Assembly (NCBI GenBank): GCA_052327205.1
Contig: CM126204.1
Location: 349,990,001-350,054,000, forward strand
Source: Somniosus microcephalus
Lineage: Eukaryota
Direction of reading: 5' to 3'
DNA length: 64,000 nucleotides
Shown: in pieces, positions 7,555 through 64,000 of the stretch
Layout of the letters: each line of letters starts with the position of its first letter
How positions within the stretch are numbered: the first letter of the stretch is position 1
The notes under the pieces: generated by a model
Databases searched by the model: none
Seen by the model: only the letters and a program-made list of their open reading frames with translations
What the model was told of the DNA's origin: nothing
Position numbers and translations under genes: made by a program

Positions 7555-8618
7555 ATGGGAGCGCACTGGGAACACGCCATCATCCCGCCTCCTCGTGCTT
7601 TTAACAGGGGCACGTCTGCCAACACAGTGTGTACAGGCAGAGGATGCGCTTCCTCAACACGACAGAGCAGCAGTGCCAAAAGAGGCCCAGGTCATCGCAG
7701 CCATTTGCAGCTTGCTGGAGCAAGACCTGCGGCCCAGAGGACCTGGTGGACCCGCCTTCCCAGTGGCTGTCAAAGTCACCAGCACCCTCAACTTCTTCGT
7801 CTCAGGCCCCTTCTAGGGATCTGCAGCAGACAATTGCGGCATCTCGCAGTCGGCCGCCCACAGGTGCATCACACAGGTCACCGATGCCATGTTTAACAAG
7901 TCAGCTAATTATGTCAACTTTGCCACTGATGAAGCCAGTGTTACTGAGCGGGTGCTCGCTTTGCCACTCTTGCTGACTTCCAACGGGTGCAGGGCGTCAT
8001 CGACTGCACACATGCGGCCATCAGGGCACCCCCACATACCCAGGAGTGTTTGTGAACTGCAAAGGCTTCCACTCTGTCAATGTTCAGCTCATCTGCAAAC
8101 ATAGGAAGATCATCATGCATGTATGCACCAAATTCCCTGGCAGCTGTCATGACTCTTTCATCCTGCACCAGTACACTCTCCCTCAGCTCTTCGCACTGCT
8201 AAACAGACTTACCGGCTGGCTGCTTGGAGACAAGGGATATCCACTGAAGACGTGGCTCATGACACCCTTGAGGAGGCCAAGCAATGAGGCTGAGGAGCGT
8301 TATAATGAAAGCCACATGTCCACCAAATATGTCATTGAACAAACAATAGGCATGCTGAAGATGCGCTTCAGAGGCCTTGACAGATCTGGAGGAGCCCTTC
8401 AGTACGCACCAGCGAGGGTCTATACAATTGTCATCATTTGCTGCGCGCTGCACAACATAGCACAGCAACGAGGATTACAGCTGCATGAGGAGCAAGGCAC
8501 AGAGCACACAGCCTCTTCAGAGGAGGAGGAGGAGCCCGAGGTCCACATGCCGGCAGCACCAGAGCACATTGCTGCCCAGGAGGCCAGGCATAGGCTCATC
8601 ATTGCCAGATTTACTTAA
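7555..8618 (+). pseudogene. Harbinger (HARBI1-like) DDE transposase, frameshifted
   Basis: Fragments in several frames: VYRQRMRFL, PVAVKVTSTLNFFVSG then TAG at 7814-7816, [63 protein letters not shown]; catalytic D-D-E residues recognisable. Confidence 0.93.
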
Positions 8619-9337
8619 CTTCCTGCATTGCACCCATATGGCTGCCACATGCAAGATCCACCCCCCCACAACAACACCATAAAGTGTCCCTACAATGACT
8701 AAGCCATTCCTTTCACACTGACCCCCATTGTTGGAGGTAACGTTATGTCTCACCATTAACTCCAACTCACTAAGCCACTTCCAAAGTAGCAGACAAAAAT
8801 GGGCATGACTGGAAAGTGGTGAAAATAAATACTTTTACATGTGTCATAACAGTAATGGAACCTTAACCGTAACACTTCTTTAAATACCCATGTGCTTACC
8901 CTTGTGCATCTACTTCTGTGTCATTTTTCTTTTATGCGTGCTTCGAAGAGGTGTAACCCCTATAGCTTCAGTAGAGGTAGAGGCAGGCTGCTCACTTCCT
9001 TGCTGCGACTGCGTAGACACTTTTGGCAGACATCGTCTAGGTTTTGGAGCCTGTGATGGCCCCGCCAAGGTCTGCTCCACCTGTGACTGTGCAGGGACAG
9101 ACTCGGCCATCGCGATCCGAGGAGGCATCTGGGGCTTTGACTGAGGGGGGAGAGCAATGGGGGAGAAGTGTGAGCCCTTTAGAGAGGAGCCCCCACTTCC
9201 ATGTCCCCTCTCACCATCATCCCTCTCATGGGCCACCCGCACCTCCCTTCTAGCAAGGAGGTGGAGAGCACCTTGCTGCACAGCAGTGGGGCCATGAGGA
9301 CCCAAGTCTATGTTTATGTCCCTCCTAGAAAGGAGGT

Positions 9338-9558
9338 TGACGTAAGAAAACTACTAGGCACTTGGTCTGAGTATTAAACAAGGCTTTAATCAACTGTTTT
9401 TCAACACTAGTTGTGTCCTTCACTAGTTCCTGTTAAAGAATGTCCTGAGCAAGCTGGGCCCATGCCCAAGTATTTATACTCTCCCTGGACAGCACCACCA
9501 GCAGGCCGCCCAGTATTATTTCATAAGTCTTTCCACATGAATGACAAGATTCATGTCA
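9338..9558 (-). mobile_element. Solo LTR copy 1 (inside Harbinger Myb exon 3)
   Basis: TGAC...GTCA ends; near-identical to copies at 21520 and 28226 in reverse orientation; flanks gaggt/gagcc (degenerate 5-bp TSD). Confidence 0.85.
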
Positions 9559-10622
9559 GAGCCTTTGCCATCTGTTGTCCATAGCTAACATCTACTCATG
9601 CGAGTGGCGCATTAGCTGCTCCATGCAGGTGGCCATCCTTTCCATGGAAGAGCCTACAGTCACCATCGCCTGTGACACGGTGGTGCTCATGTTGGAGATG
9701 GACTCCTCCATTCTCTGCACATTTTCAGACATCGAGGCTGCAAAACCTGCCAGAGCCTCCTCCATTTCTTGCTGCCCCTCCAGGATCGCCCTCTTTCTCG
9801 ATGGTCCCCGAGGCTCAGCGTCTGCATGCAGCTGAGCAGAGCTTGGAGCGTCCTGCGCCCTGCAGCGCGGAGTCTCCACTGCTGTTCCTGTTAACACCAC
9901 CTGCTCTTGCTCACTTGTGACTTGTGAGACACCAGGTGACAACACTACTCTATCTCCCACAGGACTCACCGAGGTGTGTGTATCTGTGCTGGTGCTGTGT
10001 GCGCTTGGGTCTGCTGACGGTGCACCCTCAGAGACTGGAGGCTCCTCTGAGGAGTCGTCTTCCTTCTCCGGCTGGACAGTGGAGGGGGGCAGGGGCACTC
10101 ATGGTGGACCTGTGGGAGAGTAAAGAGATGATTTAGAAATGTTATATTAAGAATGGGTAACAATACCATTATGCACATGATGAACATTCACTGGCTGCTG
10201 ACGTCAGTCACCATATGAGTGACTGCTGTATGCCATGTGGCTGTATGAGATGTAGTTCTGTCACCAGGTTGCTGAGGGGTCCCCCTCTCTCCGTCTCCCA
10301 CCGCCAGCAGCTCTGCAACGCTTGAGACCTCCAGGGCCACCTCCTCTGCTGGAGTTAAAGTGCTGAAGGATGGAGGGCCACCTCCGGTTCTCTCCCTCTC
10401 CCTGTTGTTGTGCACGCTCCTCTCCTGCAAGGAGGGAAAGAAGAGAAGTTTGAGTGAGAGTGATGGCATGAATGTAAGGATTGTGTGGGTTACATCTGTA
10501 GAGGGTGACTATGAGGGAATGTGGTGCCAATGCCAAATAGTCTCCTTTTGTGGTGTTACTTGGTACGATTGCCTTAGGATGAGGGTGAGTGTGAGGGGTG
10601 GTTAGTCAGAGGGGGATGTGAG

Positions 10623-10848
10623 TGATGTAAACAGACTACTGAGCACTTGGTGTGAGTATAAAACAAGGCTTTAATCAACTGTTTCAAAACCATGAGATTC
10701 TAGTTACATCACTAGTTCCTGGTTACAGAAACATCCTGAGCAAGCTGGGCCCACGCCTAAGTATTTATACTCCTTGGACGGCGCCACCAGCTGGCCGCCC
10801 AGTGTTATTTCATGAGTCATTTCTTCATGAATGATAAGATTCATGACA
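10623..10848 (-). mobile_element. Solo LTR copy 2 (diverged subfamily, in Harbinger Myb intron 1)
   Basis: TG...CA ends; shares aaacaaggctttaatcaactgttt and cctgagcaagctgggccca with copy 1; flanks gtgag/gagag (4/5 TSD). Confidence 0.85.
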
Positions 10849-11309
10849 GAGAGTATGTACACAGAGAGAGAGGGATGGGTGGACGTGCAAGATATGTTGG
10901 TGTGAGTAATGATGTGCAGGAGCAGGATAGGGAAGGCAGAGTGATGGGGATGTGGTGACAGGCACAGCAGGATGAGGGTGAGTGTGGCTTTGTACTCACC
11001 TTTCATCAGACCATTGAAGCGCTTCCGGCACTGCACACAGTTCTGCCTCACCACATCCCTACTATTCATGTCCTCAGCTATTTGGAGCCAGGTTCTTGGG
11101 TAGGTCTCTTCTGCCCATCAGCAGGGAAGAGGACCTCCCTGCGTGCTCTGGTTCCCTCCACGAGAATATGTAGGGAGTCATCGGAAAACCTGGGTGCAGC
11201 CCGCTGCCTTTGGAAAGTCATGTTTAGAAATCTCAGCAATAACAAGATCCTCCAATATACTCCCTCCACGTTACTGAACGAACCTTCAAATGCCATCCGG
11301 CCAAGGCTG

Positions 11310-13556: not shown

Positions 13557-14060
13557 GGGGTGAATTTTCACACCTCCTGCCTGATGAGTAGTGCCCAGAA
13601 ATTGGTGGGCAATGATCTACCAGCCCGCTGCCGCCATTGCTGCGGCCATGGCGATGTTCGCTGGGGCCTACCGCTGAGTCATGCACACTCCGATCAGTAT
13701 CAGCTGGCAGCCAGGATGAAGAGGATCCCAAAGGTAAGTTCTTCTTAATTTTCCTGGTGCCAGGAGGATCAAAAATAGTCCTCCAAGCTCCACAAAACCA
13801 GCCGGGACCACTGCATTCGGCTCCCCCCCCCCTCAGAGATTGGGCTCTCCCCTTTTATTACTTACCTTCCTCCGGCCCAAAGGCCGGCTAGGCCACCTGA
13901 TACCCTGGCAACCCAGAGCTGGTAGGTTGCCCAGCGTGCTCGATCTCTGGCCACAGCCGGTCGGCCCTATGCTAATGGGGCCCGGCCCTCAAAATATACC
14001 AGACCTCACGCTCGACCTCTGGCGCGTCCTGCTAGCCAACTGCCTGAAGTCCGCTCGGGG
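13557..14060. mobile_element. GC-rich non-autonomous DNA transposon remnant
   Basis: Begins ggggtgaattttca (same TIR style as other MITEs here); abrupt GC/CpG-rich block; right boundary unclear. Confidence 0.5.
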
Positions 14061-14201
14061 AATAAACAAACCTACAGGCTCTCAACTATGTGAGGGATAG
14101 AAGGGTTTACAGACAGGTGAATTTTCAGACAGTTTGAGTAGAACTAATAATGAATAATGTCTTACCAGATCGGTAATGTGGACCATATCATTGGTTGAAA
14201 C

Positions 14202-17200
14202 TTTTTTAAATTCATTTTTATGGGATGTGGGTGTCGCTGGCAAGGCCAGCATTTATTACCCATCCCTAATTGCCCTTGAGAAGGTGGTGGTGAGCCGCCT
14301 TCTTGAACCGCTGCAGTCTGTGTGGTGAAGGTACTCCCACAGAGCTGTTAGGTAGGGAGTTCCAGGATTTTGACCCAGCGACGATGAATGATCGGCGATA
14401 TACTTCTAAGTCAGGATGGTATGTGACTTGGAGGGGAACTTGGAGGTGGTGGTGTTCCCATGTATTTGCTGCCCTTGTTCATCTAAGTGGTAGAGGTCGC
14501 GGGTTTGGGAGGTGCTGCCGAAGAAGCCTTGGCGAGTTGCTGCAGTGCATCTTGTAGATGGTACACACTGCAGCCACGGTACGCCGGTGGTGGAGGGAGT
14601 GAATGTTAAAGGTGCTAGAGGGGGTACCAATCAAGCGGACTGCTTTGTCTTGGATGGTGTTGAGCTTCTTGAGTGTTGTTGGAGCTGCACTCATCCAGGC
14701 AAGTGGAGAGTATTCCATCACACTCCTTACTTGTGCCTTATAGATGGTAGAAAGGCTTTGGGGAGTCAGGAGGTGAGACACTCGCTGCAGAATACCTAGT
14801 CTCTGACCTGCTCTTGTAGCCACAGTATTTATGTGGCTGGTCCAGTTAAGTTTCTGGTCAATGGTGACCCCCAGGATGTTGATGGTGGGGGATTCGTTGA
14901 TGGTAATGCCATTGAATGTCAAGGGGCGGTGTTTAGACTCGCTTGTTGGAGATAGTCATTGCCTGGCACTTCTGTGGCGCGAATGTTACCTGCCACTTAT
15001 CAGCCCAAGCCTGAACATCGTCCGGGTCTTGTTGAATGCAGGCATGGACTACTTTATTATCTGAGGAGTTGTGAATGGCACTGAACACTGTGCAGTCATC
15101 AGCGAACATCCCCATTTCTGACCTTATGTTGGAGGGAAAGGTAATTGATGAAGCAGCTGAAGATGGTTGGGCCTTGGACACTGCTCTGAGGAACTCCTGC
15201 AGCGATGTCCTGGGGCTGTGATGATTGACCTTCAATCACCACAACAATCTTCCTTTGTGCTAGGTATGACGCCAGCCAGTGGAGAGTTTTTCCCCTGATT
15301 CCCATTGACTTCAGTTTTACTAGGGCTCCTTCATGCTACACTCGGTCAAATGCTGCCTTGATGTCAAGGGCAGTCACTCTCATCTCACGTCTGGAATTCA
15401 GCTCCTTTGTCCATGTTTGGACCAAGGCTGTAATGAGGTCAGCAGCCGAGTGGTCTTGGTGGAACCCAAATTGAGCATCAGTGAGCAGGTTATTGGTGAG
15501 TAAGTGCCACTTGATAACACTGTCGATGACACCTTCCATCACTTTGCTGATGATTGAGAGTAGACTGATGGGATGGTAATTGGCCGGATTGGATTTGTCC
15601 TGCTTTTTGTGGGGAGAGGACACACCTGGGCAGTTTTCCACATTGTCGAATAGATGCCAGTGTTGTAGCTGTACTGGAACAGTTTGGCTAGAGGTGTGGC
15701 TAGTTCTGAAGCATAAGTCTTCAGCACGATAGCCAAGATGTTGTCGGGGCACATAGCCTTTGCAGTATCCAGTGCACTTAGCCATTTCTTGATATCACGT
15801 GGAGTGAATCGAATTGGCTGAAGACTGGCTTCTGTGATGGTGGGGACCTCAGGAAGAGGCCGATATGGATCATCCACTCAGCACTTCTGGCTGAAGATGG
15901 TTGCAAATGCTTCAACCTTGTCTTTTGCACTCACGTGCTGGGCTCCACCATCATTGAGGATAGGGAAATTCATGGAGCCTCCTCCTCCCGTTAGTTGTTT
16001 AATGGTCCACCACCATTCACGACGGGATGTGGCAGGACTGCAGAGCTTTGATCTGATCTGTTGATTGTGGGATCGCTTAGCCCTGTCTATAGCATGCTAC
16101 TTCCGCTTTTTAGCATGCATGTAATCCTGTGTTGCAGCTTCCCCAGGTTGGCACCTCATTTTTAGGTGCGCCTGGTGCTGCTCCTGGCATGCTATTGTAC
16201 ACTCCTTATTGAACCAGGGTTGGTCCCCTGGCTTGATGGTAATGGTAGAGTGAGGGATATGCCGGGCCATGAGGTTACAGATTGTGGTGGAATACAATTC
16301 TGCTGCTGCTGATGGCCCACAGCGCCTCATGGATGCCCAGTTTTGAGCTGCTAGATCTGTTCTGAATCTATCCCATTGAGCATGGTGGTAGTGCCACACA
16401 ACACGATGGAGGGTGTCCTCAGTGTGAAGATGGGACTTCGTCTCCACAATGACTGTGCGGTGGTCACTGCTACCAATACTGTCATGGACAGATGCATCTG
16501 CGACAGGTAGTTTGGTGAGGACGAGGTCAAGTAGGTTTTTCCCTCAACACCTGTCGCAGGCCCAGACTGGCAGCTATGTCCTTCAGGACTCGACCAGCTC
16601 GGTCAGTAGTGGTGCTACTGAGCCACTCTTGGTGATGGACATTGAAGCCCCCCCACCCAGAGTACATTCTGCACCCTTGCTACTCTCAGTGCTTCTTCCA
16701 AGTGGTGTTCAACATGGAGGAGTACTGATTCATCAGCTGAGGGAGGGCGATAGGTGGTACTCAGCAGGAGGTTTCCTTGCCCATGCTTGACCTGAAGCCA
16801 TGAGACATCATGGGGTCTGGGGTCAATCTTGAGGACTCCCCAGGGCCACTCCTTCCTGACTGTATACCACTACCCCTGGTGGGTCTGTGCAGCCGGTGGG
16901 ACAGGACATACCCAGGGATGGTAAATGGAGGAGTTTGGTTGTAAAGGTATGATTCTGTGAGTATGACTATGTCAGGCTGTTGCTTGACTAGTGTGTAGGA
17001 CAGCTCTCCCAATTTTGGCACAAGTCCCCGGATGTTGGTGAGGAAGACTTTGCAGGGTTGACTGGGCTGGGTGTGCCGTTGCCGTGTCCGTAGCCGGTGC
17101 CAGGTGGTCAATGCCTTGTGGTCCATCCGGTTTCATTTTTATTATTTTGTTTCGTAGCGGTTTGTTACAACTGAATGGCTTGCTAGGCCATTTCAGAGGG

Positions 17201-17492
17201 CAGTTAAGAGTCAACCACATTGCTGTGGGTCTGGGGTCACACATAGGCCAGACCAGGTAAGGAGGGAAGATTTCCTTCCCTAAAGGGCATTAGTGAACCA
17301 GATGGGTTTTTACGACAATCCGATAGTTTCATGGTTGCCATTACTGATACTAGTAATTATTCCAGATTTATTTATTTAACTGAATTTAAATTCCCCAGCT
17401 GCCATGGTGGGATTTGAATTCACATCTCATGGATCATTAATCCAGGCCTCTGGATTACTAGCCCAGTGACATTACCACTATACTACTGTCCC
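14202..17492 (-). mobile_element. Apparently full-length single-ORF LINE (APE + RT) with tRNA-like 5' head; degenerate
   Basis: APE start VFLTNIRGLVPKLGEL..PDIVILTESYL; RT motifs NYHPISLLS, QFGF, ALDIKAAFDRV, GVPQSSVQGP, MFADD, LGVTIDQKLNW; A-rich 3' end near 14202-14218; A-box TAGTATAGTGG (17485-17475) and B-box-like AATTCAAATCC (17420-17410). Confidence 0.92.
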
Positions 17493-18702
17493 AATATACT
17501 GCTGTGTGTATGGATTATTGAATCATTAAGAAAAAGGAGGTTGAATCCAGAGAGGCTGCAGCTGTACCTCTGCTTCTTGACTGCCCACTGTTGATCAGGG
17601 GATGAAACGAACCAACTATTAATGTTACAAAGTCACTTCAGCACAAACACCATAGTATAAACGGACTATTCCCACCCAAGTGTCATTAGCATTTACTTCT
17701 TATCTGTCATACAACATTTTTGCAACCTTCACTTTTTCAATGATTGCACTTTCCTCTATACGGTTTAGCTTTCTTTTTCATTTTTTTCTTTTCATCCTTT
17801 TTCTGTTTTAACTCATCTGGAGTTATATTGATTTTTGTTGCTGGATTTCCAAAGGGCACAGCATCAATTAGGCTGTATACACAACAGATTCTTTGTCAGA
17901 TAGAGAGGCGAAGAGTGGGGCTGTTTAGTAAATGCAGGTACAGCGTAGATACTGAAAGATGTCTACCTGGTAAAGATACTAAGTAATCTCATGCTATGTG
18001 ATGTTCTCAGTCCCTTAACCATCTTCATTTGTTTTTTTATCAACCTGGATGTACAGTTTTGTGTACTCACGCTGCTGCTCTCTGCTCTTTGCCCCTGGAT
18101 ATCTGCCAGTAGGGGAACTGGAACGCAAGGGGTGAAGACTAGAGGTCAGCAGTGTGAGTACACAGAGACACGTTACTGAAATTCATCTCCGCTGTGAAAA
18201 CTTGAATATTTTCACAGTGGAGAGCCCTAGGAGAAGTAATTTTTTAAAATATAAAACAGATAAGGTTCTTTAGTTCCTACTTATAGGTTGGAGAAATAAC
18301 AATTATGTGACAACAGTGGAGCCCAGCAGCTTTAGTCTTATACATTGAGCTGAGGAATTAGATGTGATAATAAGATGGTTTCCACTCTACTGATAACTAT
18401 TCTCCAGGTTTCACAGACTGGTTCACACATTGCAGAGCACCCCAGGTAGTAAGGTTCAAGCAGCTATTCCTTTGTGCATCCCTTGTTTGCCGTGCACAAT
18501 CCGGAAGTTGATGTCGCTTGTTATTCTCTTCCCGCTGTTTGCCAATTTTTCCAGAGTTTGAATAGCTGGTGCTGCATAATAAATAAAAGATGTTGCATTG
18601 GGAACAATAGAATGTCCAGTTTGTTGTGTACTGTGCGTGACCTATAAAGGTTTTCTTCACTTGTAGAATAAACTGGATATCCCATTGTTCATCCCTAAGC
18701 AT

Positions 18703-21486: not shown

Positions 21487-21519
21487 TTGATTTTTTTCTG
21501 AAAATTTCTAAATGGTTAT

Positions 21520-21747
21520 TGACATGAATCTTGTCATTCATGTGGAAAGACTTATGAAATGATACTGGGCAGCCTGCTGGTGGCACTGTCCAGGGAGAGT
21601 ATAAATACTCGGGCATGGGCCCAGCTTGCTCAGGACATTCTTTAACAGGAACTAGTGAAGGACACAACTAGATCTCCATGTTGAAAAACAGTTGATTAAA
21701 GCCTTGTTTAATACTCAGACCAAGTGCCTAGTAGTTTTCTTACGTCA
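21520..21747 (+). mobile_element. Solo LTR copy 3
   Basis: TGAC...GTCA; TATAAATA and ATTAAA in LTR order; flanks gttat/gtcat (4/5 TSD). Confidence 0.9.
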
Positions 21748-21769
21748 GTCATCACTGAAAGTGCAGAAA

Positions 21770-22068
21770 GAGAAAGAACTTGCACTTATATAGCGCCTTT
21801 CATGTGTTCAGGATGTTTCAAAATACTTCACAGGCAATGAAGTATTTTTGAAGTGTAGTCACTGTTGTAATATGGACAAACGCAGTAGCCAATGTGCGCC
21901 CAGCAAGTTGCTCCAAACGGCAATGAGGCAAATGACCATGTAATCATTTTTTAGTGGTGTTGATTGAGGGATGAATGTTGGCCATAATAACTCCCCTGCT
22001 CTCCTTCGAATAGTATCATGGGGAGGAAGCGCAATGGGGCTTTTGTTTAATCCCTCAGCCAAAGGTTG
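21770..22068 (-). mobile_element. DeuSINE-type (SacSINE1-like) SINE with L2-derived tail
   Basis: acttgcacttatatagcgccttt is the reverse complement of the L2 3' end at 34971-34992; body homologous to 30508-30722; family name from recall. Confidence 0.7.
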
Positions 22069-22441: not shown

Positions 22442-22504
22442 CCCCAGTACCTCTGATATTGTAGCAATCACTCAGTACTAAATATTTCTGGCTACAATCT
22501 ATTG

Positions 22505-24690
22505 ACGAAATGTAGGGAAGGAAAAAAGAAAAGGGGGTGTGGCAGTATTGATCAAGGAAAATATTGCAGTTCTACAGAGGGATGATATACCAGACAGTTC
22601 AAAGACTGAATCTATTTGCTTAAAGTTAAGGAACAGAAAAGGAGCTGTTACACTGATCGGTGTTTATTATAGACACCCCAAATAGTGAGAAGGAGATAGA
22701 GAAGCAAATCTGTAAGCAAATTTCAGAAAATGTAAAAATAATAGAGCAGTAGGGGACCTCAATTACCCTAATATAGACTGAGAAAAACAGTAAAGAGGGT
22801 GACAAATTCCTAAAATATGTACAGGAGAACTTCCTTAATCAGTATGTTTCTAGCCCAATGTGGAAGGAAGCAGTGCTGGATCTAGTTCTAGCGAACAATG
22901 TTGGGCAAGTGGAGTGTGTTTCAGTGGGAGAACATCCGGGTAATGATGATTTTTTTTTATTCGTTCATGGGATGTGGGCGTTGCTGGCAAAGCCAGCATT
23001 TATTGCCCATCCCTAATTGCCCTCGAGAAGGTGGTGGTGAGCCACCTTCTTGAATACAACTGAGTGGCTTGCTAGGTCATTTCAGAGGGCAGTTAAGAGT
23101 CAACCACATTGCTGTTGGTCTGGAGGCACATACCGGCCAGACCGGGTAAGGGTGGCAGATTTCCTTCCCTAAAGGACATTAGTGAACCAGATGAGTTTTT
23201 TTATGACAATCCGGTAGTTTCACAGTCACCATTACTGATACTACCTTTTTATTCCAGGTTTATTTAATTGAATTTAAATTCCCCAGCTGCTGTAGTGGGA
23301 TTTGAACTCATGTCTGCAGGATCATTAGTCCAGGCCTCTGGATTATAAGTTGAGTAACATAACCACCAAGTAGGCTTAAAGTAGTTACGGAAGGGGACAA
23401 AGAAAAATCAAAGGTGAAAACACCCAACTGGAAGATAGCCAATTTCAGTGATTTGAGGAGGATGGACTGGAAACAAAGATTGGCCAAGAAAACAGTAAAT
23501 GAGCAATGGCAGGCCTCCAAGGCAGAGATAGTTTGGGTACAAATCAAGCATATTTCCATAAGGAGGAAAGATAGGGCATCCAAAGCTAGAGCTCCTTGGA
23601 CGACAAAGGAAATAGAGATTAAAATAAAACAGACAAAGGAGGTTTATGACAAATGTCAGGTCCAGAATACAGTAGAAAACCAGGCAGAATACAGAGAGCA
23701 CAGAGGGAAATTGAAAAAGGATATAAGAAGGGCAAAGAGAGATTATGAGAAAAAATTAGTGGGTAACATAAAAGGGAACCCAAAAATCTTGTATAAACAT
23801 ATAAAAAGTAAAAGGAATGGTGGGGCCGATTAGGGACAAAGAAGGAAATCTTCTTGTGGAGGCTGTGGTCATGACTGAGGTACTGAATGAATACTTTGCA
23901 TCAGTCTTCACAAAAAACGAGGATGAAGTTAATGGCGCAGTAGAGGAGGAGGGAGTAGAGATATTGGATAGGATAAAAATAGATAGAAAAGAAGTGCTAA
24001 ATAGGTTGGCATCACTCAAAGTTAACAAGTCGCCTGGTCCAGATGGGATGCCTCCTAGGTTGCTGAGGGAAGCTAGGGTAGAGACAGCAGAAGCTCTGAC
24101 CACAATCTTTCAATCCTCCTTGGATGTGGGAGTGGTGGCAGAGGACTAGAGAACTGCAGATGTTACACCCCTGTTCAGAAAAGGAGAGAGAGAGATAAAC
24201 CTGGTAACTACAGGCCAGTCAGTCTAACATCAGTGGTGGGAAAACTACTAGAGACCATCGTCAGGGACAAAATTAATTCTCACTTGGAGAAGCATGGGTT
24301 AATAAGGGACAGCCAACACAGATATGTTAAAGGCAAATCGTGTCTGACTAAGCTGATTGAGTTCTTTGATGCAGGTAGTGCTGTAGCTGTTATATAGGTG
24401 GACTTTCAAAAGGAATTTGATAAAGTACCGCATAACCGTCTTATTTGGAAAATAGAAGCACATGGGATTAAAGGGATGGTGGTAACTTGGGTATGTAATT
24501 GATTAAGGGATAGGAGGCAGCGAGTTGTGGTGAATGGGTGTTTGTCTGACTGGAGAGATGTATGCAGTGGGGTCTGCAAGGAATCGGTATTAGGATCAAT
24601 GCTTTTCTTGTTATACATAAATGACCTGGACTTGGGTATAGGGAGAACAGTTTCAAAGTTTGTGTATGATACAAAACTTGGCAATGTAGT
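22505..24690 (+). mobile_element. Older CR1 ORF2 fragment (endonuclease to RT), interrupted by a SINE and truncated by an antisense CR1
   Basis: ORFs 23414..23833, 23817..24149 (LNEYFASVFT, KSPGPDGM), 24527..24712 (YINDLD..KFVYDTKLG). Confidence 0.9.
22950..23367 (-). mobile_element. tRNA-headed SINE equal to the 5' head plus 3' tail of the LINE at 14202-17492
   Basis: 22960-23055 matches 14211-14307; 23056-23367 matches 17166-17478; intact B-box AGTTCAAATCC (23308-23298); A-rich tail at 22950-22960. Confidence 0.92.
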
Positions 24691-27441
24691 ACATAGAAAC
24701 ATAGAAAAATAGAAACATAGAAACATAGGAGCAGGAGTAGGCCATTCGGTCCTTCGAGCCTGCTCCACCATTCAATATGATCATGGTTGATCCTCTATCT
24801 CAATACCACATTCCCACTCTCTCTCCATACCCCTTGATGCCTTTTGCATCTAGAAATCTATCTATCTCCTTCTTAAATATATTCAGTGACTTGGCCTCCA
24901 CAGCCTTCTGTGGTAGAGGATTCCACAGGTTCACCACTGTCTGAGTAAAAAAAATTCTCCTCATCTCAGTCCTAAATGTCCTACTCCGTATCCTGAGACT
25001 GTGACCCCTCGTTCTAGAGCCCCCAGCCAGGGGACACATCCTCCCTGCATCCAGTCTGTCTAGCCCTGTCAGAATTTTATATGTTTCAATGAGATCCCCT
25101 CTCATTCTTCTAAACACTAGTCAATACAGGCCAAGTCGACCCAATCTCTCCTCATGCGACAGTCCTGCCATCCCAGGAATCAGTCTGGTGAACCTTTGCT
25201 GCACTCCCTCTATGGTAAGTATATCCTTTCTTAGGTAAGGAGACCAAAACTGCACACAGTACTCCAGGTGTGGTCTCACCAAGACCCTGTATAACTGTAG
25301 TAAGACATCCTTGCTCCTGTACTCAAATCACCTTACAATGAAGGCCAACATACCACTTGCCTTCCTAACTGCTTGCTGCATCTGCATGTTTACTTTCAGT
25401 GACTGTTGTACAAGGACACCCAGGTCCCTTTGTACATCAACATTTCCCAATCTATCACCATTTAAATAATACTCTGCCTTTCTGTTTTTTCTACCGAAGT
25501 GGATAACTTCACATTTATCCACATTATACTGCATCTGCCATGTATTTGCCCACTCACTTAACTTGTCTAAATCGCCTTGAAGCCTCTTTGCATCCTCTTC
25601 ACAACTCACAATCCCACCTAGTTTCGTGTCGTCAGCAAACTTGGAAATATTACATTTGGTTCCCTCATCCAAATCATTGATAAATATTGTGAATAGCTGG
25701 GGCCCAAGCACTGATCCCTGCGGTACCCCACTAGTCACCACCTGCCACCCTGAGAAAGACCCATTTATTCCTACTCTCTGTTTCCTGTCTGTTAACCAAT
25801 TTTCAATCCATGCCAGTATATTACCCCCAATCCCATGTGCTTTAATTTTGCACACTAACCTCTTATGTGGGACTTTATCAAAGGCCTTCTGAAAATTCAA
25901 ATACACCACATCCACTGGTTCTCCCTTATCTATTCTCAGTTACATCCTCAAAAAACTCCAGTAGGTTTGTCAAACATAATTTCCTTTTCATAAATCCATG
26001 TTGACTTTGTCTAATCCCGTTGATATTTTCTAAGTGTCCTGTTATCACATCCTTTATAATAGACACTAGCATTTTTCCTACTACTGATGTTAGGCTAACT
26101 GGTCTGTAGTTCCCTGTTTTCTCTCTCCCTCCTTTTTTAAATAGTGGGGTTACATTTGCCACCCTCCAATTTGCAGGAACTGTTCCATAATCTATAGAAT
26201 TTGGGAAGATGACAATCAATGCATCCACTATTTCCATGGCTACCTCTTTTAGTACTCTGGGATGCAGATTATCAGACCCTGGGGATTTATTGGCTTTCAG
26301 TCCCATTAATTTCTCCAGCACTATTTTTTTACTAATACTAATTTCCTTTAATTCCTCCTTCTCACTAGACCCTTGGTTCCCTAGCATTTCTGGGAAGTTA
26401 TTTGTGTCCTCTCCCGTGAAGACAGAACCAAAGTATTTGTTTAATTGCGCTGCCATTTCTCCCGTTTCTGACTGTAAGAGACCTACATTTGTTTTCACTA
26501 ATCTTTTTCTTTTTACATACTTGTAGAAACTTTTACAGTCTGCTTTTATGTTCCTTGCAAGTTTACACTCATACTCTCTTTTTCCCCTCTTAATCAATCT
26601 CTTGGTCCTTTTTTGCTGAACTCTAAACTGTTCCCAATCCTCAGGCTTGCTACTTTTTCTGGCAACTTTATATGATTCCTCTTTGGATCTAATAAGGAAA
26701 CTCTCTTTTAACCGGCACCTAAATTATCCGGAAATCTCTCTTAACCGGCAAAATTCAGGAGTAGGTTCAGGTAAGTTTGACTATATATTAGTGGCCTTGC
26801 AACCGGGGGTTCCTGGATCTGTAGCCGTGTAACCGGGGCTCCTGCACCTGTGGCCGTGCAACAGGGACTCCTGGATCTGTGGCCGTGTAACCGGGACTTC
26901 TACGCACGTGCCGTGTAAATGGGGCTCCTGCACCTGTGGCCGTGTACGGGGCTCTCGTACCTCGGTAAGTATACCTCTCTGTAATCCGGACCTTTTGATC
27001 AACCGGCACCACGCCGGTCCCGTCGGTGCCAGATAAAAAAGAGTTTCTTGTACTATCCTTAATTTCTTTTGTTAGCCATGGTTGGGATCCTTTTCCTTTT
27101 GTGTTTTGGCGCCAGAAAGGAATGTATAACTGTTGCAATTCATGTATTTGTTCCTTAAATGTTAGCCATTGCCTGTCCACCATCATGCCTTTTAATGAAG
27201 CTCCCCAATCTATCATAGCCAACTCCCTCCTCATACCTTCGTAGTTTCCTTTGTTTAGATTTAGGACCCTAGTTTCGGATTGGACGACTTCACTTTCCAT
27301 CTTAATGAAGAATTCTATCATGTTATGGTCACTCTTCCCTAAAGGACCCCGCACAACAAGATTATTAATTAACCCCTTCTCATTGCACAATACCCGATCT
27401 AGGATAGCCTGTTCCCTAGTCGGCTCCTCAACATACTGGTC
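24691..27441 (-). mobile_element. CR1 LINE, ~2.4 kb of ORF2 plus 3' end, containing a MITE insertion
   Basis: ORFs 26788..27390 (LGKSDHNMIEF), 25926..26597 (NYRPVSLTS), 25328..25915 (KFADDTK), 24800..25117; (tagaaaca)n tail at 24691-24728. Confidence 0.95.
26695..27050. mobile_element. Tc1/mariner (pogo/Tigger-like) MITE with internal minisatellite
   Basis: TA duplicated at 26693-26694 and 27051-27052; TIR aggaaactctcttttaaccggcac vs caagaaactcttttttatctggcac; removing it rejoins the CR1 sequence ggatctaata|ctatcc. Confidence 0.88.
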
Positions 27442-27737: not shown

Positions 27738-28760
27738 GTTCCAGTTATTTGCAGTCAGCGGCGAAGCAAAGGCGCTCGCTGCTGACCCCGAAGAAAGCTG
27801 CCCACAAAGATCTCGCGAATTCTGTGGCGAGAAGTTTGGCTTTTCCAACGTTCAGTTGAGATCAGTGTAAGTTAATGGGGAATCCCTAACGCGAGCTGCT
27901 GTGATGTCAACAAGCTGTCATAAGCAGCCAATCACAATGCAGAATTCTCACAGACAGCAAACCAGGAAGTGAAGAAGCTCCTTTTATTCTGACTTTTAAA
28001 AAATGTTGTAGAGAGCAAAACAAAGATTGATGCTCTCACATGGGGAAAAGGTAAACCTGAAATAAATATCAACAAACCTTTTTTTAAATATAATTTTTTT
28101 TAACTTAAAAATTTCAATTTTATTAATAAGGGAGAAATTTGAAACTTCGCAAAATTAAAATGAGCTTTTCTGGGTCATAACGTTTGTTTAGCAGTCAATA
28201 CGCTGTTAAAACCCCAGTTACACTTTGACATGAATCTTGTCATTCATGTGGAAATGACTTATGAAATAATACTTGGCAGCCTGCTGGTGGCGCTGTCCAG
28301 GGAGAGTATAAATACTCGGGCACGGGCCCAGCTTGCTCAGGACATTCTTTAACAGGAACTAGTGAAGGACACAACTAGATCTCCATGTTGAAAAACAGTT
28401 GATTAAAGCCTTGTTTAATACTCAGACCAAGTGCCTAGTAGTTTTCTAATGTCACACTTAATCCAACAAGGCCTAACTTTTAATGGGGAAATTAACAGCG
28501 ATGTTACCGCAGAAAAGCCCAAGTATTTGTCAGTTTCACTGATTTCCCTGATTACACTGATTGCCGGCTCTGTTGGGAGGTGGGGGGGAGGGGGGCCACA
28601 GCGCAGCCAGTGTCGGAGCAGTGAATGACTGATCGCAACTTCAGGATTTTCCTGTTAGGATGCGCATGCGCTACATCCTGAAGTTGCGGTCAGTTTCAAA
28701 GGGGTAATGACAGCGAACGCTATTCATTCGCTGTTATTACCCACCGTAAATTCCGGGACC
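27738..28760. mobile_element. Harbinger-type non-autonomous element (~0.8 kb without the LTR)
   Basis: Degenerate TIRs gttccagttatttgcagt and accgtaaattccgggacc; subterminal hairpins cgcaacttcaggat..atcctgaagttgcg and gtaatgacagcgaa..ttcgctgttattac. Confidence 0.65.
28226..28454 (+). mobile_element. Solo LTR copy 4
   Basis: TGACA...TGTCA ends; perfect 5-bp TSD CACTT (28221-28225, 28455-28459); TATAAATA 28307-28314; ATTAAA 28402-28407. Confidence 0.93.
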
Positions 28761-30507: not shown

Positions 30508-30722
30508 AAAGAAAAGAGAGACTTGCATTTATATAGCACCTTTCACGACCTCAGGACATCTCAAAGCACTTTACAGCCAATGAAGTACCTTTGAAGTGTA
30601 GTCACTGCTGTAATGTAGGAAATGCGGCAGCCAATTTACGCACAGCAAGCTCCCACAAATAGCAATGTGATAACGACCAGATAATCTGTTTTAGTGAGGT
30701 TGTTTGAGGGATAAATATTGGG
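30508..30722 (-). mobile_element. DeuSINE-type SINE 3' half
   Basis: acttgcatttatatagcacctttcacgacctcaggac..gaagtgtagtcactg; homologous to 21770-22068. Confidence 0.75.
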
Positions 30723-31637: not shown

Positions 31638-32118
31638 GGGTCTTGGTGGAGCAGTGGATTACAAAAATGTCTTTTTACTGCTGGATTCTGAGTTCAAATC
31701 CAGCCTAGACTGAGCTAAGGCAGCTTCCCAGCTCTGTCAGTTTGTATCTGTCTATAGGAAACTTAATTAAAATGAATTTAATCTTAGCTTCAATCAAGGT
31801 CTCACTAGATGCAAGCCAAAAAATAGCTAAAAAAAACCTGACACTAACAACTCTTGACACTAACAACTCGCGCTTATTCAGAGGCCAGAGAGATGCATTG
31901 CCCTTCTTCAGCATTTGTGATTTTATTCTTACCTCTATACCAGGCCATAGGGAAGGCTGATCAAATGGAAATATACTGTTGCAAGAGAAGCAAGTAGTCT
32001 TCTGAGGTTGGGGTTAAGGCACCTTGTATTTAACCCATGCTGAACCTGACCTGGGAGTGCTTAATGTCAACACTGAGTGCAAAAAGTGCAAAATGTTCCA
32101 TTTCTCAGCGTGGATATC
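31638..32118 (+). mobile_element. Old tRNA-derived SINE, possibly LF-SINE-related
   Basis: A-box-like tggagcagtgg and B-box gagttcaaatcc followed by agcc; downstream ggggttaaggcac and cccatgctgaacctg resemble my recollection of LF-SINE segments. Confidence 0.45.
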
Positions 32119-53480: not shown

Positions 53481-53920
53481 AGCAATTGTCGCCCAGCTCA
53501 AGCGATTACTAGCTAAAGAGAGCGTGGTGTCTCGGAGTTATCCCTGCTTCATCCCGCCACACCTCAACTTCCAACAAAGTTGAATAACTAGCGCAAACGT
53601 CGTGGATTATCCCAGACTTTTTTTTTCTTGCAAATTCCTGATGTATTAATTTTTTTTTTAAAGTTTGTTTTTTGAAAACCAAATCTGTGCAAGGCTATCT
53701 TTGTCTAGCCAAGTTTATAGCACGTGCGAGCTTACATTTTCATTTTGTTTAAAAAAAAATTCTCTGATGCTTCAGAAGACAGCAAAAAAGAAACGGTTAG
53801 TCCACACACACACACACACACTGATTGCCAACGCTTCTCCTTTTTGAACAGCCTCATCGCAAACTCAATTAAAGTACTGGTTGTGATGAAGACGCGCTCT
53901 TAAAATTCTAACCAACCGCG

Positions 53921-54446
53921 ATGGAAGGATCCAGCGGGTCTAGCTTTGGAATAGACACTATTTTGTCCAACAGTTCCGGCAGTCCTGTGCTGGTGAACGG
54001 TGATTTTCGCCACGGTGACAACAGGACTTCAGATTTCAGAAATCAGGCCACCCCGTCCCCGAGCTCGGAGATAGACACTGTGGGGACGGCTCCCCTATCG
54101 CCGCTCTCCATGGAGCCGCACCAAGAGCAACATCTCGGCCCGGACAACCTCCATCCCCATCAGCAGCAAAGTTTGCAACAGCAGCAGCAGCAACAGCAGC
54201 AACAGCAACTGGCAGCCGGCAGCTCCGGCCCCAGGACTTCCACCTCCTCTTTTTTAATCAAAGACATTTTGGGCGATAGCAAACCGCTGGCAGCCTGCGC
54301 CCCTTACAGCACCAGCGTCTCGTCACCCCACACCCCCAAACCAGAGGCAGAGTCCTTCAGGCAAAAGACAGAACCCGAAGAGTGTAAAAACCGGGACAAG
54401 CTCGACAAACGAGATGACACTCAAAGTGATAGCATCAAATGCAACG
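53921..54446 (+). CDS. barhl2: BarH-like homeobox 2, coding exon 1
   Basis: MEGSSGSSFGIDTILS..NGDFR..QATPSPSSEIDTVGTAP..RTSTSSFLIKDILGDSKPLAACAPYSTSVSSPH matches vertebrate BARHL2; two eh1/FIL motifs; donor G|GTGAGT; 526 nt (phase 1). Confidence 0.97.
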
Positions 54447-55995
54447 GTGAGTCCGCCTGTCTCTTGTGATTTTTTATATTATTATATATATATATATATA
54501 TATCGGTGCTGCTTGTTTTTGGTAATTTGCAACTAACAGTTTTGCAAGTGCTACAGACATATGTAACGCTGCACACTGACAGCTTTAGGTGGCATGGAGG
54601 GAATTGTCAAGGCTTTCAAGACATATCATGAACAAAAACCGAGAGCTTCGTTTGAATAATGTTTGGGACGCTTCAGAGGTTACAGTCCTGGCTAATGATG
54701 CTTATTTGTTTCGTTCAGGGGTTCTTTAAACATTTGCTTTCGACTGGTGGCGTGTCGCTGTCACCTTTGTTTATTCTTGTTTTGTGCCGAGGCACTGAGA
54801 CTAGTAAATAGACTGTACTGTATATCCCACGCCTTTTCAAAACTACTGAGATTGAACGCATATGTAATTGCGAGCCGGCAGCACACGGGAGCTGTTCATA
54901 TTCAGGGCAATGCTAACGTGGGTTGCAAAGACAGGCAGGCCTAGTTATTTTTTCTCTCTCGCTAAATTATCGTATCTTCTCGCTTTTATCGGTTGTAATT
55001 AGGATATGGGAAGTGCAGAAATGCACCCGCAATTATTCATACAACGAGGGGATTATTTAATGCACTGAATTACACGGAATCAGCAATTTTAGAACGCCAG
55101 CCGATTTTGATGATTTTTTGGTGGGGAATATACACGGATTGATATAATTGGTCCTTTCCCCGCGACAGTTAACATGCTAATAGTTTATAATGACTGTTAT
55201 AACAAGTATACAATAAAGGAAAATGTGCGATCAATAGAATGATCTTTTTTTATATACTAAATCCGCTTTAATATAAGATGATCACTTGCCAAACACTTCT
55301 AATGATACTTTATCACCATCAGCCATCTCCCGTTGTTGTAAATTGTGTGTAAATGAAAAAAACTGGCCTTATTTTTATAATTCATTCAGTGATTACTATT
55401 AGCATAATAGAGAGGGGGGAAAAAAACAGATGTAGAGTCTGGTCTGGCGATTTTTATGCCCAAACCTCCCCAGTGGGTCAATTAGAGAGATTATTGTTTT
55501 TCCTGCAGGGGAGATCATGGAGCGCTGCAAAAACTGGTACAAATAGAGATGGATTGACATATCGATTTCCCAGCATTTCAGGAAAAACTCAAAGTTGACA
55601 AATAGTATCCGGAATTCTTAAAGCCATCAGCCGGACGTGTATCCCTATCGAAAGATTCGAAACACACTGAATCAGTTACAAGTTTAGTTCTCGTTACTAT
55701 TAAGGTCGATGGGTCGGCAAATAATTACATTTAATTTTTCTTTTTGCATTTTAAATACACGGGCTTTTTGAATTAATTAATAGATTTAAAATCGGCACAA
55801 ATATTGTGCTATAAATTGGAACTCTGTGAAAGGCACGCAAACGGCTATTTTGCACATGCAAATGATATGCAAAATTGTACGGGGAAATTTGAACTTTTTT
55901 TTGCAAATAAGGTTACAGGATGCTTCTCAAACTAACATTGCTGTTATTGGTGCTGGGCACTTGGATTCATGCGCTGCGATTATATCTCGTGTTAG

Positions 55996-56221
55996 GAACA
56001 AAAGAAGAAGGCGACCGTGAAATAACGAGTAGCCGGGAAAGTCCTCCTGTGCGGGCGAAGAAGCCTCGGAAAGCGAGGACGGCCTTCTCCGACCACCAGC
56101 TCAATCAACTGGAGCGCAGTTTCGAGCGCCAGAAATACCTGAGTGTCCAGGACCGCATGGATCTGGCCGCGGCTCTCAACCTGACTGACACCCAGGTCAA
56201 AACCTGGTATCAGAACAGGAG
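55996..56221 (+). CDS. barhl2: BarH-like homeobox 2, coding exon 2 (most of the homeodomain)
   Basis: Acceptor gttag|; [76 protein letters not shown] with the Bar-specific WYQN; donor AG|GTACGT; 226 nt. Confidence 0.98.
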
Positions 56222-57710
56222 GTACGTGAGACGTACTGATACAATCATTGCCGCAATCTGTGTACATCGAAACGGTGCTGCCCACAATCTGTGTATAATC
56301 TGTGTCGGTATATTATAGAAACTTATCTTATACAAGATGGCACATATTCTGCTTTAAACAGTCAGGCTGTAAAAGTATTTCCACCCTGAAGATAAGCACG
56401 CTGCACTGAAATAACGGTGCGAACTATTGACAGCACCAGAAATGCATGGACACTAGTCAGCTGCTATGCACAAAAACAAACGGAAACTGTGCTCCAGAAG
56501 CGGATTTCTTTTTGCACTGAGAGCGAAAGGGAGAGGTTCTAAGACAAACACAAGGAATCCATGAACACTTCAAACATTTTCAAAATAGTTCCTGTACATC
56601 TTCAAACTTTGCAAGCAGAGTCCAATTTTAGCCTTTAGGTTTATCAGATGGAGATTGGCTTATTTTTTTTAATGATCTTATTTTAAAAATGCGTTTTATA
56701 TGTTTCTGTAAAGCAAAGGATGTGCATTGAAGTGGAGGCTTTCAGCTACTGTTTAAGATCGCAGCTATATTTTCGTGAAGTGTGTTTATTGTAAATGCAT
56801 TTGGGCGCATTTGTTCGATTTTAAAAAATAGTTTAATTTGAAATGTTCTCAAATTGTACGTTAAACATCTACGTTTAGAACGCAAAGAAAGGCCATTTTT
56901 TTCACCGAACGCAATTCTGTTTTAGTTATAAGATATTCCGATATCTTCGTCCATCCTCGGCTACTAAAACAGGATGCGAAATTTTGCTTTGACCGCAGTT
57001 CAGTGTAACTGGAGTTGAAAATGGGCGTCCAGTTGCCATCCATGCCACAGTTTTTCTGTCTCATTACATACAGTTTTCAGCCATGCTAACTCTGTCAGAA
57101 AACATTAACCTCAGCTGTTCCCAAATCTAAACACGGTTTAATGCATTATACTTTTTAGCCTTTTAGCTTATTATTCCAATCCGTTTTTGTTAATTGCTCA
57201 GATAAAGCTTTGCACAGCGCGCATGCACACTGAAGACATTTAGCTGAAGCAGTCTCCTATATTTGCCTCGGAGCCATGCATTCCCACCTTACTGTGGGTC
57301 AATCTGGCATTAACATTTCAGTTGCTTATATTTACTAATTTGGCTTGCAATAAATTAACATACCGAGCCGCTCAAAATAGGTTTAATGCTAAGAATGGCT
57401 TGTGAGTTGCGAAGATTCGTCCTTTTTAATACACATTTATTGGAGCTATTTGTTTTTAAGCATAATCTAAAATATTCAGAACCTCTCTAATTATATAATC
57501 AATCTGTGCACAGCTTCAATTCAGTATAAGAAGCGCATTTGAAACCCCCAGATAAATGCCATTGCTGGGTATTTTGTGCTCTGCGTTGCCTCTTGTTACA
57601 CCATGGTGTGGAGATGCCGCCTCTTTCATTTCACTTAAGGGTTATTTGCACGGTGTTATTTACAAAGGCCCCCTCTAATTGTATTCTTGGCTATTTCTGC
57701 ACTATTTCAG

Positions 57711-58002
57711 GACGAAGTGGAAGAGGCAGACGGCGGTGGGACTGGAGCTGTTGGCCGAGGCCGGAAATTACTCCGCTTTGCAGAGAATGTTCCCATCTCC
57801 CTATTTCTACCACCCGAGCCTACTCACTAACATGGACACGACGGCGGCGGCAGCCATGTACATGTACCGGACTCCACCGCCTCACCCCGGACTGCAGCGA
57901 CCGCTCGTCCCGCGGGTCCTCATCCACGGGCTCGGCCCGGCAGGACAACCTGCACTCAATCCCCTGCCCAACCCCATCCCCGGCACACCACACCCCCGGT
58001 GA
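57711..58002 (+). CDS. barhl2: BarH-like homeobox 2, coding exon 3
   Basis: Acceptor tttcag|; TKWKRQTAVGLELLAEAGNYSALQRMFPSPYFYHPSLL..QRPLVPRVLIHGLGP..PIPGTPHPR*; exons sum to 1044 nt = 347 aa + stop. Confidence 0.98.
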
Positions 58003-58355
58003 AAAACAGAGAGGGGGGGGGGTGTTGGGGTGGGGTGTGTGTGTGTGTGTGTGGAAAAAAAACACAAGACTGTGGAAAAGCCGCTAAGAGGGACATAAAA
58101 CGGACTCTGCTCTAATGTAAGAGAAAAGAAGAAAAAAGGTCAAGGCTAATGGACTTGGAACTTTGCACTGATTTCTCATGACCTTTTTATCTGAACGTGG
58201 CATGCACCAGAATAGTAAGAAGTGTACATTTCGAGGACTGGGTGATTTACGCGTATTTATTATATGTCGTCAGAGAAATCCGGGTTGAAACTATATAAAC
58301 ATTAGTAAAGTACATACAGATTTTTTTTCTCATTTTCATGCAGTCTTTTCAATCA

Positions 58356-63699: not shown

Positions 63700-64000
63700 T
63701 GAGGGAGAGAGGAGAGGGAGAGGAAGAGAGGAGAGGGAGAGGAAGAGGGGGGGGAGAGGAAGAGGGGGGGGAGAGAGAGGGGGGGAGAGAGAGAGGGGGG
63801 AGAGAGGGGGGGAGGTGAGGAGGAAGAGAGAGGGGGGAGGTGAGGGGGAAGAGAGAGGGGGTTGAGGGAGGGGGAAGGTGGAGAGAGGGGAGGGAGAGAG
63901 GGAGGTGGTTGGGGGAGAGGGGGGGAGAGAGGGGGGAGGGGAGGGAGAGAGGGGAGGGGAGGAAGGGGGAGGGGAGAGAGAGGGGGGAGAGGGAGGGGGG
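63700..64000 (+). repeat. G/A-rich low-complexity polypurine tract
   Basis: About 300 nt almost only G and A with many G4-G8 runs; runs off the window edge. Confidence 0.95.

Follow-up and report, generated by a model that had tools for sequence, protein, structure and literature searches.

A 417-nt noncoding element at 22950-23366 (minus strand) of the window, i.e., the whole 64-kb (64,000-nt) stretch of DNA analyzed here, consists of the head and the tail of a decayed LINE located at 14202-17493, as found by self-BLAST of the window. The explanation that we consider best, although we put it slightly short of an even chance, is that a CR1/L2-group LINE carrying a tRNA-type head, and with RNA polymerase III (Pol III) probably making its RNA, gave rise to a SINE by internal deletion. 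With somewhat more hesitation, we propose an autonomous LINE family that would be transcribed end to end by Pol III from a captured tRNA promoter, would have purged its coding sequence of terminators, and would give birth to SINEs by a single deletion. If this were true, the head and body of such a SINE would be inherited from the LINE, not added to a LINE tail.

The self-BLAST comparison yielded two matches between the short and the long element. The tail of the short element (22951-23054) matched 14202-14307 (106 nt, 88.7% identity, E = 1e-31), and the remainder (23055-23366) matched 17166-17478 (316 columns, 84.5% identity, E = 4e-94). These matches abut on the short copy with neither gap nor overlap, and both breakpoints were borne out by alignment. 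The self-BLAST and alignment results confirm a preliminary description of this DNA in which the end of the LINE was joined directly to its start, with approx. 2.86 kb absent. The accompanying claim that nearly all coding sequence is absent has to be qualified; 2,858 nt are indeed gone, but the tail includes the last 13 codons of the ORF, which identifies the shared ~105 nt as LINE-derived and means that some coding sequence is retained. Both elements lie on the same (minus) strand, with 5.46 kb between them. The short element is composed as follows:

22950-22963, minus strand: A-rich 3' tail (a T-run on the plus strand), aligned to the tail of the long copy
22964-23054, minus strand: LINE-derived tail with the last 13 ORF codons, the stop, the 3' UTR and two hairpins
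22983-22997, minus strand: terminal stem-loop, with one loop base differing from that of the long copy
23054/23055, minus strand: head/tail junction, with microhomology of at most 3 nt, offset by one base
23055-23290, minus strand: body of ~235 nt in common with the LINE 5' region by alignment, without Deu motifs
23291-23366, minus strand: 5'-truncated tRNA-like head, with a B box at 23298-23309 and only the 3' part of an A box
14308-17165, minus strand: segment of the long element missing from the short element (2,858 nt, self-BLAST)

About 14-15 nt are missing from the start of the head in the short element, and with them the 5' part of the A box. It contains no reverse transcriptase or endonuclease sequence and its length falls within the range of SINEs (100-700 nt). 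Its size, its A/B-box head and a 3' tail in common with a partner LINE are those of a tRNA-derived SINE (SINE2), and the joining of the 5' and 3' termini of one LINE, with the middle gone, is that of a bipartite LINE. Retention of a promoter-type head and a 3' stem-loop in the short form, as initially described, is thus supported, and a SINE architecture is present. The suggestion that these parts mark out the minimal cis-elements is unsupported, the short copy itself having lost part of the A box. The corresponding features of the long element are:

14202-17493, minus strand: decayed LINE (3,279-nt sense strand counted)
14202-14307, minus strand: tail that folds into two hairpins, the terminal stem-loop being at 14236-14250, and finishes in a short A-rich stretch
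14266-17132, minus strand: single broken endonuclease and reverse transcriptase ORF, from the ORF list (ten in-frame pieces used, 2,592 nt)
17166-17404, minus strand: body of the 5' region, in common with the short element (self-BLAST, alignment)
17405-17493, minus strand: tRNA-like head of 89 nt (Rfam alignment and motif positions)
17475-17485 and 17410-17421, minus strand: A box and B box, respectively, of the head (motif positions)

The head of the long element presents AGT (Thr) in the anticodon loop, carries a 23-nt insert in the variable region and ends in CCA. The Rfam tRNA model aligned the D, anticodon and T arms of this head, albeit weakly (15.7 bits, E = 0.6; gathering score 29). 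ARAGORN reported 0 tRNA genes, the head of the long element included, and the head overall folds no better than shuffled sequences (z ~0.1). Judging by the A and B boxes and the weak cloverleaf alignment, we regard the head of the long element as tRNA-derived. The body of the long copy alone had no Rfam match, and an Rfam search over 13.5-24.5 kb gave chance-level matches only. Neither element contained either of two Deu-domain motifs that were drawn from an alignment in the literature, each of which had one chance-level match in the window (51969 and 63539). An identity with SacSINE1 or another DeuSINE, which had been considered first, was dropped given the absence of these motifs, in a comparison made at the level of motifs only.

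The second, upstream hairpin of the LINE tail is also kept in the short element, the tail of which starts 4 nt before the first stem. Tail folding was more stable than expected from shuffling in the short copy (z = -5.15; 0 of 200 shuffles as stable) and in the long copy (z = -2.9). Among the 28 tail pairs compared between the two copies, one change was compensatory, one pair was changed on one side and two pairs were broken in the long copy; with two sequences, this covariation was indistinguishable from that of shuffles (226/500). The terminal stem-loop had been noted in the preliminary description and is present, but the letters quoted there spell the plus strand of the long copy (14236-14250), from which the short copy differs. 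The tail of the short element matched the long element only and none of the classical CR1 copies in the window (sensitive BLAST, nhmmer).

The ORF of the long element is not intact in this copy, being broken into at least 10 fragments. Pfam RVT_1 was matched by 3 of the 11 ORF pieces, and N-terminal pieces matched a eukaryotic gene model, P0007, with 56% identity across 91 aa and 67% across 42 aa; the segment of P0007 that they match has a weak Exo_endo_phos match (E = 0.009). Both the endonuclease and the reverse transcriptase that characterize an autonomous LINE are therefore represented. Compared to CR1 copies in the window, identity was 26% at the endonuclease end, 41-44% in the best segments of the reverse transcriptase pieces and 23% in the C-terminal piece; Atlas matches of the reverse transcriptase were to unclassified eukaryotic reverse transcriptase clusters. 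Our reading of these similarities is that the long element is probably a CR1/L2-group LINE distinct from the classical CR1s nearby. The interval between the shared head and the ORF start is ~35-120 nt, too short for an ORF1.

Both copies have an ATG in the shared body (17220), from which a frame of 82 codons runs into the beginning of the ORF in another phase. The start of the LINE ORF might lie inside the portion kept by the SINE; a protein search with the head-spanning frame gave no support for an ORF start inside the shared body, with 0 of 17 candidates retained among longer proteins. A search with the endonuclease N-terminal frame retained 1 of 51 candidates, i.e., P0007. This gene model fuses the C-terminal domain of RGM to the endonuclease start of a LINE of the long-element type, most likely as a mis-predicted exon. 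P0007 shows that there is a relative elsewhere but contains no head.

If a LINE is driven by a tRNA-type promoter, its sense strand would be expected to lack Pol III terminators, a prediction that was set before counting. No run of four or more T was found in the 3,279 nt of the sense strand, as compared to 5.35 expected (P = 0.002, mononucleotide null), and A, C and G runs of the same kind numbered 15, 12 and 10, respectively. The long element coincides with the longest stretch that is free of four-T runs on either of the window's strands:

13995-17530, minus strand: 3,536 nt without a four-T run, the next longest such stretch being 1,352 nt

Among 472 control windows, from which those with N or overlapping the long element were excluded and which overlap one another and are thus non-independent, none was free of four-T runs (minimum 6); only three matched the T content of the long element, with 6, 7 and 12 such runs. 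Four-T runs numbered 18 versus 18.4 expected in 12 control regions chosen by hand, which comprised 8,936 nt of CR1, L2, RTE-like, Harbinger-like and exon sequence. The shortest Pol III terminators described in the relevant section of PMC8466645 are TTTT and T-V-TTT, and we also applied a combined definition (T4+ or T-V-TTT) after this source. The sense strand of the long element contained 0 of these combined words as compared to 9.3 expected (0 of 2,000 shuffles as low), versus 45 observed and 32.6 expected in the controls and 23 observed and 26.8 expected on the antisense strand of the long element. The A, C and G analogues of the combined words (observed/expected of 28/27.0, 20/25.0 and 13/10.3, respectively) were not depleted. 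The absence of terminators suggests that the LINE has possessed its head for long, which speaks against a one-off chimera, and that Pol III may transcribe it; the pattern fits such transcription without proving it.

Other null models bear on which polymerase makes the long RNA. The same genealogy would hold if Pol II made that RNA, either starting at the head or reading through; in that case the tRNA-like fold may be a processing or translation signal, comparable to the 5' ribozyme in R2, and the scarcity of T-runs may reflect the composition of the LINE clade. We judge this alternative unlikely, although not far-fetched. A dinucleotide-shuffle null for four-T runs only is borderline (P = 0.052 for the whole element and P = 0.154 for the ORF alone), which counts against Pol III and is in keeping with Pol II. 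Under a synonymous-codon null, applied to T4 and TTT words, the long element was depleted (T4, 0 versus 2.6, P = 0.04; TTT, 8 versus 16.8, P = 0.0025), but N-half CR1 pieces were likewise depleted (T4, 1 versus 7.8, P = 0.0015; TTT, 27 versus 36.4, P = 0.02); use of the Phe codons TTT and TTC did not differ significantly (P = 0.23). LINEs are, moreover, generally held to be Pol II-transcribed in the passages concerned of PMC5786205 and PMC10886601, and the ORF has to be translated; Pol III RNAs are described in the latter source as uncapped and usually short, so that translation from such an RNA would need an unexplained route. On the other hand, composition shared across the clade does not readily account for the host CR1 of the short element, which is free of four-T runs and yet contains 8 terminator-like words over 1,493 nt, versus 0 in 3,279 nt of the long element; nor does Pol II transcription sit easily with the undepleted A, C and G analogues and the retained A and B boxes.

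The short element interrupts ORF2 of this classical CR1:

22480-22949, plus strand: left part of the host CR1 ORF2 (endonuclease region), by translation and by tblastx to a second CR1 copy
23367-24390, plus strand: right part of the host CR1 ORF2, in which the frame resumes ~3 codons past the left part

Compared to another, uninterrupted CR1 copy in the window, the host is short of ~3 codons at the insertion site. No target-site duplication of at least 7 nt flanks the short or the long element. It had been argued that an A-tail of its own and a position inside a CR1 mean that the element retrotransposed in its short form. This does not follow, as a full-length insertion that later lost its middle would leave the same A-tail and the same CR1 flanks.

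One alternative dispenses with a short family altogether: a full-length element would have entered the CR1, and its middle would have disappeared during or following insertion, at this single locus. The A-tail and the CR1 context are expected equally in this case, no second short copy was found in the 64-kb window, and a possible 3-nt microhomology at the seam would fit end-joining. We nevertheless find such a deletion improbable, as what remains is a promoter module together with the two tail hairpins, the start of the tail lying 4 nt ahead of the first stem. A random internal deletion would leave 250-450 nt of the 5' end and 60-110 nt of the 3' end with a probability of ~0.002, which makes a one-off deletion of this architecture unlikely, although the finding itself was picked for its SINE look. 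That the remnants are exactly the promoter module and both hairpins favors a selected SINE. A further alternative, to which we assign an equally low probability, reverses the relationship, the short element belonging to an ordinary, older family of SINEs and the long element being a one-off chimera that arose by a jump of LINE cDNA onto SINE RNA or by local recombination. Template jumps to tRNA or snRNA at the 5' ends of LINEs have been recorded for R2 and L1 in the part of PMC3414825 concerned, exchange of modules among SINEs is described as common in passages of PMC5499810 and PMC7245038, and divergence between the two copies is greater in the head than in the tail (K2P of 0.141 and 0.084, respectively), although the tail comprises just 91 columns and these values are too imprecise to order the copies. 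Such a jump, however, would have to hit the head/tail seam of the SINE exactly, with no tail residue, as well as the near-full 5' end of the ORF, and it would leave the terminator-free 2.8-kb ORF unexplained; for these reasons we favor the step from the long to the short form. The initial proposal of either SINE birth by LINE deletion or capture of a SINE head by a LINE can be narrowed in so far as the step seen here is explained more economically by deletion of the long form, while the two options may be successive, an older head capture from a tRNA or a SINE being compatible with a long-to-short step. It also counts against the explanation by a tRNA-headed LINE and internal deletion that only one long and one short copy were seen and that the tRNA match falls below the Rfam gathering score.

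The preferred explanation would start from a single-ORF CR1/L2-group LINE, the 5' end of which consists of a tRNA(Thr)-derived internal promoter and a body of ~235 nt. The tRNA-type head would have joined this LINE by a template jump of the reverse transcriptase, either directly or via an older SINE, and its CCA end points to an RNA template. The fused unit would then have been replicated until its sense strand had lost Pol III terminators; the lack of terminators is what we observe in the long element, their loss during replication being the presumed cause, and a terminator-free sense strand implies that Pol III probably makes the whole 3.3-kb RNA. An internal deletion, of which the junction is observed and a resulting family is conjectural, would have fused the head to the last ~105 nt with both hairpins, which the LINE protein would recognize, so that a complete tRNA-type SINE would result in one step. 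Finally, an older CR1 would have received a copy of the short RNA, reverse-transcribed in trans; in the process, ~15 nt of the 5' end and ~9 nt of the target would have been lost.

The sharing of both ends with a LINE, which the preliminary description set apart from usual SINE/LINE pairs, is real, although similar cases have been published (PMC5786205, PMC3414825). Bipartite non-autonomous LINEs (RIME/Ingi, NARTc/L1Tc, Vingi-1_EE derivatives, Bov-A and RTE-N), as presented in the section of PMC5786205 that covers them, likewise consist of LINE ends joined by internal deletion and are mobilized in trans, to which we liken the short element. In the same section, head-plus-tail forms without an ORF are reported only for RTE, Ingi, Vingi and R2, whereas the parent here resembles the CR1/L2 group; moreover, the published forms are held to be Pol II-transcribed with a tRNA head added later, whereas the parent here already carries the tRNA head. 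R2 SIDEs, in the part of PMC3414825 that describes them, are also short and internally deleted and keep a 5' functional RNA module and a 3' recognition sequence, and 5' template jumps of R2 have captured mature tRNA with CCA at the LINE 5' end; a possible R2 subfamily with snU12 is mentioned as well. Unlike the elements described here, however, the R2 head is a ribozyme and not a promoter, the tRNA captures are single events, and insertion is specific to rDNA. RTE-1_DAn and elements akin to it are LINEs with tRNA-like sequence but belong to the RTE clade, and the passage of PMC5786205 on these elements is silent on the position, promoter function and terminators.

Among SINEs of cartilaginous fishes, SacSINE1 and LmeSINE1 (DeuSINEs of cartilaginous fishes and coelacanth; section of PMC5499810) share with the short element a tRNA head, a long body and a CR1/L2-group tail, and are similar in size (463 nt in a passage of PMC2746220 versus ~430 here). 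SacSINE1, however, is described in the former source as sharing just the tail with its LINE, L2-2_CM, and the Deu motifs are absent here. The HE1 V-SINE of sharks and rays is similarly a tRNA SINE paired with a CR1-type LINE, HER1, via the 3' tail (passage of PMC3747384); by comparison with the description of HE1, the pair studied here may differ, its tail matching the long element and not the classical CR1 copies of the window.

The short element is thus a variant of known head-plus-tail derivatives, in a LINE group (probably CR1/L2) not listed as a source of such derivatives, and the tRNA-headed, terminator-free parent LINE is a more unusual feature, and the stronger lead, than the shared ends. 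In the pertinent passages of PMC5786205, SINEs are usually explained by a small-RNA head grafted on a LINE tail, and the origin of the SINE body is called unknown; a LINE that already has a tRNA head and body would allow a SINE to arise in one step and would itself supply the SINE body. These data suggest that one deletion can turn a tRNA-headed LINE into a ready-made short parasite, and the range of clades with internal-deletion derivatives would grow past the four reported. Should Pol III indeed make the 3.3-kb coding RNA, the split between Pol II for LINEs and Pol III for SINEs would be broken, and translation of uncapped RNA would come into question.

Searches for further copies covered the window and several collections. 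Sensitive BLAST and nhmmer found no further copy of the head, body or tail in the 64-kb window. A protein search with the reading frame across the junction gave no candidate, and phmmer with the 39-aa junction peptide gave six weak matches (E = 1e-4 to 7e-4) that consist of multiple stretches, none clearly across the seam. Two exact-motif scans of prokaryotic genome contigs and a blastn search of plasmids and phages gave 0 matches, a blank that says little with vertebrate genomes outside their scope, and a motif search in the full text of papers likewise gave 0 matches. Overall, the collections searched, which do not include vertebrate genomes, yielded no second copy with linked head and body or with the same junction, and no tRNA-headed CR1-group LINE or Pol III-transcribed autonomous LINE is described in the titles and abstract openings of the literature searched. 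It is quite possible that the family is already catalogued, Repbase and Dfam lying outside the comparison.

Several other features were observed in the window. Remains of a Harbinger-like DNA transposon occupy 7605-11117, with a DDE_Tnp_4 match on the plus strand (7977-8618, E = 3.5e-29) and a weak Myb/SANT match on the minus strand (10704-11117). These remains are interrupted by two copies of a ~230-nt repeat, which is present in four copies (9338-9561, 10619-10855, 21519-21751 and 28219-28454; 81-97% identical) and, with three copies 93-97% alike, is probably young. A minus-strand pair of ~215-nt repeats (21767-21981 and 30508-30721; 77% identical, with a simple T/C-rich tail end) probably represents 5'-truncated copies of another SINE or L2-type element, and we presume that they may be SacSINE1 3' ends. 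At 26788-27050, a short insert with internal repeats breaks up a CR1 copy but keeps an open frame. An isolated A-box/B-box-like spacing on the plus strand (31644-31700), dissimilar to the short and long elements, is possibly an old SINE head. Exons of a vertebrate-like homeobox gene, which we take to be BarH-like, are located at 53912-58087 (Homeodomain, E = 1.9e-20), ~30 kb from the short element. Assembly gaps at 41273-41717 and 44484-44951 together comprise 913 N, and a degenerate tandem repeat (63690-64000) forms the right end of the window.
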